Shown here: piece after piece, positions 20,303-63,631 of the stretch
Layout: every line of letters begins with the position of its first letter
Numbering within the stretch: position 1 is the first letter of the stretch
Assembly: GCA_964016885.1 (NCBI GenBank)
Contig: OZ024752.1
Coordinates: 40,176,001 to 40,240,000, forward strand
Length of the DNA: 64,000 bases
Reading direction: 5' to 3'
DNA from: Eledone cirrhosa
Lineage: Eukaryota
Notes under the pieces: model-generated
What the model was told of the DNA's origin: nothing
Databases searched by the model: none
The model's input: only the letters and a program-made list of their open reading frames with translations
Program-made: the position numbers and the translations under genes

Positions 20303-20364
20303 TTAAGAAAAGATGATCAGTATGATGCTAAGGATCATAGTGCTGATGTTCAATTTGTATCCTG
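20303..20364 (-). CDS. Gene 2 terminal exon T ([19 protein letters not shown]), GPI-signal-like
   Basis: tctccag acceptor (NAGNAG), phase 1, TAA at 20305-20303, AATAAA 22 nt downstream. Confidence 0.8.

Positions 20365-63631: not shown

Follow-up and report, generated by a model that had tools for sequence, protein, structure and literature searches.

The window analysed here is a stretch of 64,000 nucleotides from the octopod Eledone cirrhosa (assembly GCA_964016885.1, contig OZ024752.1, positions 40,176,001 to 40,240,000). It consists of AT-rich, repeat-laden animal DNA and lies in a 50-Mb contig of a 3.0-Gb genome. Twenty exons, read independently on the minus strand, run from 63631 to 20303. 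The acceptor is AG in every one of the 20, and the 19 donors comprise 18 GT and one GC (30364). Every junction (19/19) is phase-compatible, and no internal stop codon interrupts the resulting 3,186 nt, which encode 1,061 amino acids and a stop. Because random minus-strand stretches of exon size (90-216 nt) are open in just 11-27% of cases, the chain is far beyond chance. A previous reading made from the DNA letters (the sequence-only reading) had described 20 phase-matched exons encoding about 1,061 residues, with at least 10 sequons, Leu-rich motifs, and a terminal hydrophobic stretch without a cytoplasmic tail. The chain, frame, and length were reproduced, although a 39-nt microexon had been missed, and the corrected tally for the window is 21 exons and 1,074 amino acids (Table 1). 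Within the 20 exons we counted 11 N-X-S/T sequons; the quoted Leu-rich motifs are present, the last of them straddling the exon 17/18 junction, and the C-terminus is hydrophobic (13-residue Kyte-Doolittle mean of 2.85) and lacks a tail.

Transcript contigs confirmed that the gene is real and spliced. The sole transcript source was run X4, which is known to be spliced from its contigs; the contigs listed for run X1 retain introns. Two spliced X4 contigs cover the gene, and both end within exon 3. The first (4,534 nt) runs from upstream exons through exons 1 and 2 and stops 90 nt into exon 3; its exon 1-2 joint skips a 687-nt intron (CT..AC on the plus strand). The second (2,772 nt) starts in exon 3, and its five listed pieces correspond to exons 3, 5, 6, 8, and 13. 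Their spacing equals the model prediction except for 39 extra nucleotides between the exons that begin at 45658 and 43620. Among nine candidates for these nucleotides, 43918-43880 is the only strong open AG..GT candidate, and therefore the number of exons in the window is 21. Support for the exons from 30536 downward comes from the remaining length of the second contig, together with colinearity with the orthologue described below. This remainder of 1,014 nt corresponds to exons 14-20 (935 nt) plus 79 nt.

Candidate exons 47238-47177, 40761-40609, 36853-36725, and L006:6440-6207 were excluded as incompatible with contig spacing or phase. The first of them (62 nt, minus strand), which has strong acceptor and donor scores and is absent from the transcript contig, is possibly a cryptic or rare exon. 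A 200-N scaffold gap (63369-63568), the flanks of which overlap by 10 nt, lies in exon 1. Because the contig coordinates make this exon exactly 149 nt long, the gap is an assembly artefact. Such a gap inside a coding exon would break automatic annotation. At window position 34279, in exon 12, the contig differs by one base, A to G on the plus strand (T to C on the transcript). This difference is likely an allele, since its direction is wrong for A-to-I editing and X4 is another sample.

Table 1. Coding exons of the Eledone cirrhosa gene within the window, in the order of transcription
Feature	Position in window	Strand	Remarks
Exon 1	63273..63631	-	149 nt after discounting the false 200-N gap; 1st exon of sixth three-exon repeat
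Exon 2	62446..62585	-	140 nt, phase 2-1; 2nd exon of sixth three-exon repeat; contig joint
Exon 3	50346..50776	-	431 nt; Asp/Glu/Lys-rich linker
Exon 4	47986..48081	-	96 nt; contig spacing 96 nt
Exon 5	45458..45658	-	201 nt; contig and orthologue
39-nt microexon	43880..43918	-	Overlooked in the sequence-only reading; contig spacing, splice candidates, orthologue
Exon 6	43405..43620	-	216 nt; contig and orthologue
Exon 7	43034..43183	-	150 nt; opens module B (second, C-terminal mesothelin-precursor-like module)
Exon 8	41196..41378	-	183 nt; same length as its upstream twin L005:7485-7303
Exon 9	38748..38839	-	92 nt; orthologue
Exon 10	37953..38082	-	130 nt; orthologue
Exon 11	36484..36665	-	182 nt; same length as its upstream twin L004:8655-8474
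Exon 12	34234..34324	-	91 nt; orthologue
Exon 13	33730..33919	-	190 nt; terminal furin-type polybasic motif RRKRR (33754-33740)
Exon 14	30364..30536	-	173 nt, GC donor; opens ~290-aa mature-mesothelin-like part
Exon 15	29520..29681	-	162 nt; query that retrieved the orthologue
Exon 16	27434..27579	-	146 nt, phase 0-2; 1st exon of three-exon repeat unit
Exon 17	25710..25849	-	140 nt, phase 2-1
Exon 18	23359..23456	-	98 nt, phase 1-0
Exon 19	21480..21633	-	154 nt; its end is the likely GPI attachment region
Last coding exon	20303..20364	-	Hydrophobic C-terminal GPI-type signal and TAA stop

The window covers only the 3' 45% of the gene and under half of the protein. In the upstream 100 kb, examined by exon-by-exon comparison and a splice-site scan, the gene extends about 50 kb beyond the window, through about 32 further coding exons (L002-L006). 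The outermost, L006:9760-9673, is Met-initiated and hydrophobic, with a putative start codon at L006:9760 (G000:C12:40289760), and from its sequence it likely encodes the signal peptide, in agreement with the earlier view that the 5' end and the signal peptide lie outside the window. The 53-exon model encodes 2,399 amino acids, and the contig has 180 nt left over as 5' UTR. In this model, the 5' exons L006:1934-1901 and 1140-1034 were picked by phase and length, without orthologue support, and a third small 5' exon (L006:970-932) by its resemblance to the window microexon. Window exons 7-18 recur in the upstream region as a second copy, whose exons agree with them in phase and are similar in length (183/183, 182/182, and 146/146 nt); further exon 16-17-18 units (phases 0-2, 2-1, and 1-0) follow it. 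Including the one that belongs to this upstream copy (module A), six three-exon units stand in a row, and the sixth has the acidic exon 3 at its end.

When exon 15 served as the query of a full HMMER search, four matches were obtained, one of which was a true orthologue, O. bimaculoides LOC106874393 (XP_014777596-603; 2,400 aa), annotated as uncharacterized; the other three (P0001, P0002, and P0004) were discarded as chance, repeat-driven matches. An orthologue search among proteins of 1,320-4,200 aa (7,995 candidates scored) retrieved three Octopus proteins only, a result that concerns this length class and says nothing about absence from squid, cuttlefish, or other molluscs. Besides LOC106874393, they are O. 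sinensis LOC115212334 (2,406 aa), unnamed in the public annotation, and a hypothetical protein of O. vulgaris (P0013; 2,184 aa), which has neither hydrophobic end peak. At 2,399 aa, the Eledone model matches the length of the proteins of O. bimaculoides (2,400-2,413 aa) and O. sinensis (2,406 aa). All 21 window exons and 27 of the 32 upstream exons are colinear with the Octopus orthologues, in order, and identity over the window exons is 54-55%. The attribution of the gene to a cephalopod was therefore correct. The description of it as hidden was not, because the orthologues are annotated, as uncharacterized proteins, with a precomputed match to the Pfam Stereocilin model (PF21058). In the main texts of the literature searched, we found no mention of LOC106874393, LOC115212334, or three accessions, and the present analysis gives a name to an unnamed octopod gene for a protein of about 2,400 aa.

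Both the Eledone gene and its Octopus orthologues encode two modules, two basic motifs, and a charged linker; the O. bimaculoides model has one three-exon repeat fewer than the Eledone gene, O. sinensis, and O. vulgaris. O. bimaculoides P0003/P0005 also carry, close to the N-terminus (residues ~228-395), an insert of Arg/Ser/Thr/Pro repeats that is specific to this species and absent from the Eledone model, and five of the listed O. bimaculoides isoforms differ from isoform X1 solely by deletions in this insert.

Three features escaped the sequence-only reading: the duplication within the protein, its two furin-type sites, and the array of three-exon repeats. The protein is composed of two mesothelin-precursor-like units of about 600 aa, between which lie six three-exon repeats and an acidic/basic linker. 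In O. bimaculoides, residues 401-1011 (module A) align with residues 1729-2338 (module B) at 22.6% identity over 633 columns (E 3e-28); the alignment score is 365, against a mean of 48 and a maximum of 71 in 100 shuffles. An R-X-K/R-R furin-type motif occurs in each module, in register, in 4/4 species (the Eledone gene and 3/3 orthologues); the RRKRR of exon 13 lies about 290 aa before the predicted GPI anchor. An iterated profile detected a unit of about 115 aa eight times in two orthologues and as seven strong copies and one weak copy in the third; the later rounds of such a profile are circular, and the first-round E-values for non-seed copies are 3e-8 to 4e-3. Hydropathy peaks at the two ends only in 2/2 complete orthologues, and the hydrophobic stretches of the Eledone gene lie in its first and last coding exons. 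Sequons within exons number 45, which predicts heavy glycosylation.

The two X4 contigs meet in exon 3, where a 27-nt tandem repeat (50465-50737, about 10 copies) is spanned by neither, and their depths are 38 (5') and 173 (3'). One possible explanation is that shorter products also arise from the locus: a form that has module A only and terminates in exon 3, a transcript that starts internally and has module B only, or both. The exon 3 frame continues past the donor (50295-50345, minus strand) for 17 codons that encode a hydrophobic tail and a stop, a possible alternative C-terminus, and depth is 4.5 times higher in the 3' contig. However, a break inside a 27-nt tandem repeat is a typical assembly break, and 3' bias explains the gap in depth, contig depth being a poor measure. 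Furthermore, the 3' contig links exon 3 with the downstream exons, one protein of about 2,400 aa is annotated in two Octopus species, and module B showed no signal-peptide exon of its own. We therefore regard shorter products as improbable and treat the locus below as a gene for one long protein.

The assignment of this protein to a family comes from its orthologues, because none of 39 single-exon Pfam scans (0/19 in the window and 0/20 upstream) matched a family model; weak unrelated matches of single exons were discarded. PF21058 matches the O. bimaculoides protein with 54.7 bits (E 1e-14, cut-off 26.6), and its module B alone with 26.8 bits against the same cut-off of 26.6. In our own scans of O. 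sinensis and O. vulgaris (2/3 species) no Stereocilin match was obtained, although PF21058 is precomputed for them. Of the two Pfam models named in advance as a check, Stereocilin was thus found on the O. bimaculoides orthologue, whereas Mesothelin (PF06060) is unlisted there, as is Otoancorin_N; PF06060 is absent at E <= 1. In the ESM atlas, the nearest clusters to the O. bimaculoides protein are Otoancorin (0.92, 202/256 features). Further atlas clusters are one dominated by arthropods, with 21% PF06060, and a Stereocilin-domain one of 2,010 aa, and therefore long forms are not unique. Exon 16 alone led to the same families, as a lead.

A predicted structure of the 293-aa post-furin part of the O. 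sinensis protein is all-helical (pLDDT 77.5, pTM 0.64). When this model was compared with 48,161 chains, ranks 1 and 2 were mesothelin: one match with Z 7.1, rmsd 4.2, and 140/148 residues aligned, and another with Z 7.0, rmsd 12.5, and 249/288, in which model residues 1-283 lie on mesothelin 305-586. These Z values of 7.0-7.1 are tied with those of unrelated helical-repeat proteins at 6.1-6.6 (all below 8), so that the fold comparison supports membership but is no proof and is not decisive alone. For a 631-aa model (pLDDT 65; several fragment rows misaligned), mesothelin was at rank 10 among tied coiled-coil matches. Sequence searches of the PDB found no mesothelin. Neither PF06060 nor PF21058 gave a match in genome-wide profile searches, and because these missed this gene as well, they are uninformative on paralogues; three single-exon searches of the genome returned this locus only. 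Word-index protein searches (one exon and an exon alignment, against proteins of up to 2,000 aa) gave nothing, which is explained by the length ceiling of 2,000 aa.

The proposed placement in the mesothelin/otoancorin/stereocilin superfamily agrees with PF21058 through the orthologue, the Otoancorin atlas clusters, and the top fold ranks of mesothelin. Because these three methods point to three different members, and without a tree, we assign the gene at the level of the superfamily only. The GPI-type C-terminus proposed earlier is also supported by the sequence pattern. Family membership, secretion, and GPI anchoring, the last as predicted from this pattern, are together very probable. The octopod gene is a new architectural variant of the mesothelin/otoancorin/stereocilin superfamily. 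An invertebrate member is not new in itself, since the name otoancorin already appears in ascidian, starfish, and octocoral papers. Otoancorin was reported to be 54-fold upregulated in fertile Botryllus colonies and was localised to the testes by in situ hybridisation (PMC4523013); an otoancorin exoprotein is upregulated in crown-of-thorns starfish testes (PMC9759900), and the skeletal matrix of an octocoral contains an otoancorin-like protein (bioRxiv 10.1101/2020.07.15.202069). These proteins also place the family outside vertebrates, and they are likened to the octopod gene by reported name. In the literature, the starfish paper was the sole match for otoancorin in cephalopods or molluscs, one bat review was the match for stereocilin with octopus, and none was found that combines stereocilin, otoancorin, and mesothelin with invertebrates.

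Mesothelin is made as a 622-aa precursor, from which furin cleavage yields a GPI-anchored solenoid (E296-T600), the part that binds to CA-125/MUC16 (PMC10035497). The octopod modules of about 600 aa resemble MSLN (PF06060; PDB 8cz8 and 8cxc), with a furin-type motif about 290-300 aa before the module end, and the predicted structure of the octopod post-furin part aligns with mature mesothelin end to end. However, MSLN is a single unit of about 620 aa, whereas the octopod protein has about 2,400 aa and contains the unit twice, the copies being separated by six three-exon repeats and a charged linker; identity is about 13%, and there is no PF06060 match. Thus, the octopod protein likely works like mesothelin, yet it is not filed as MSLN. 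OTOA and STRC (STRC 1,775 aa; PF21058 and PF28491) are likewise long, helical, and glycosylated, with a signal peptide and a hydrophobic C-terminus, but the octopod protein is longer and internally duplicated, and an Otoancorin_N match is unlisted. OTOA and STRC have been proposed to tie acellular gels to inner-ear cells, possibly as lectins; that members of the family act as lectins is likewise a proposal (PMC2628672). The mesothelin-precursor layout (a pre-piece, a furin motif, and an anchored solenoid of about 300 aa) is present in a mollusc in doubled form, expanded by three-exon repeats. If the likeness reflects homology in detail, although convergence is possible, the mesothelin cleavage layout would be old and no vertebrate novelty.

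On balance we favour, with moderate confidence, the reading that the octopod protein of about 2,400 residues carries a GPI anchor, undergoes cleavage at two furin-type sites, and ties an extracellular gel of glycoprotein to the cell surface. The signal peptide would direct the precursor into the secretory pathway, and the C-terminal signal would be exchanged for a GPI lipid. A furin-type convertase would then cut at about residues 602 and 2085; judging from the motifs, there is a good chance that cleavage occurs at these sites. The anchored remnant would be a helical solenoid of about 290 aa that sits on the apical membrane and corresponds to mature mesothelin, and an N-terminal piece of about 570 aa and a middle piece of about 1,480 aa (the repeat array, the charged linker, and the first half of module B) would be freed or loosely bound. 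By analogy with mesothelin-MUC16 and otoancorin-acellular gel, the solenoids may bind a glycoprotein or mucus matrix.

The site of action may be sought in two directions. The protein may belong to the surface of the male germ line or reproductive tract, in spermatogenesis or in a sperm or spermatophore coat, which we hold to be a tentative possibility. The Botryllus testis localisation with its 54-fold rise and human OTOA, called testis-selective in the same paper (PMC4523013), as well as the starfish testis exoprotein (PMC9759900), are in line with it. In addition, the identity of about 54% to Octopus and the varying repeat number would fit a fast-evolving reproductive protein, although fast divergence equally fits mucus or surface proteins. 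The sequence-only reading suggested, by analogy with vertebrate members, an anchor for the cupula or statolith matrix on the hair-cell epithelia of the statocyst, or on epidermal hair-cell lines. This is consistent with the similarity to the otoancorin/stereocilin family, with cephalopod statocysts that comprise a macula-statolith and a crista-cupula system and aragonite statoliths (PMC6597576), and with the otoancorin-like protein of the octocoral skeletal matrix (bioRxiv 10.1101/2020.07.15.202069) beside the long acidic linker found here. However, the furin-site layout resembles mesothelin, a non-sensory member, and the published invertebrate localisation is to testis (PMC4523013), so that we consider the statocyst role doubtful and a reproductive role at least as likely. 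Stereocilin was not found paired with the statocyst in the main texts of the literature searched, and the main text of a cuttlefish statocyst endolymph proteome, in which few proteins were identified, has 0 mentions of the three family names. A more specific form, in which the duplicated unit yields a double-cleaved polyprotein whose GPI-anchored stub, together with large solenoid and acidic pieces set free by cleavage, forms and retains the matrix of the cupula or statolith, is quite unlikely. If it were true, the hair-cell organs of cephalopods and those of vertebrates would both have recruited their anchors from this one family.

Downstream of the gene, a convergent gene lies on the plus strand at about 13069-18167, with long acidic tracts and TPAK-type repeats. 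Its RRM-like exons (14459-14620, 15086-15325, and 16488-16631) gave one RRM_1 match (E 0.003), and the gene appears to be nucleolin-like or related. Within its span, about 6 kb downstream of the original, the minus strand carries a decayed duplicate of exon 19 that comprises its acceptor and 5' portion (15657-15749; 78% over 93 nt, E 6e-19). The 11.7-kb intron contains degenerate (TA)n arrays at 54486-61721 (7.2 kb) and 50811-51981 (1.2 kb), and the reverse-transcriptase remnants at about 52000-54000 and 48400-49300 are presumably LINE-like. Four intronic minisatellites, at 47410-47789 (54 nt x7), 37121-37392 (51 nt x5.3), 29733-30286 (141 nt x3.9), and 22692-23154 (117 nt x4), have 95-99% matches between copies and are young.
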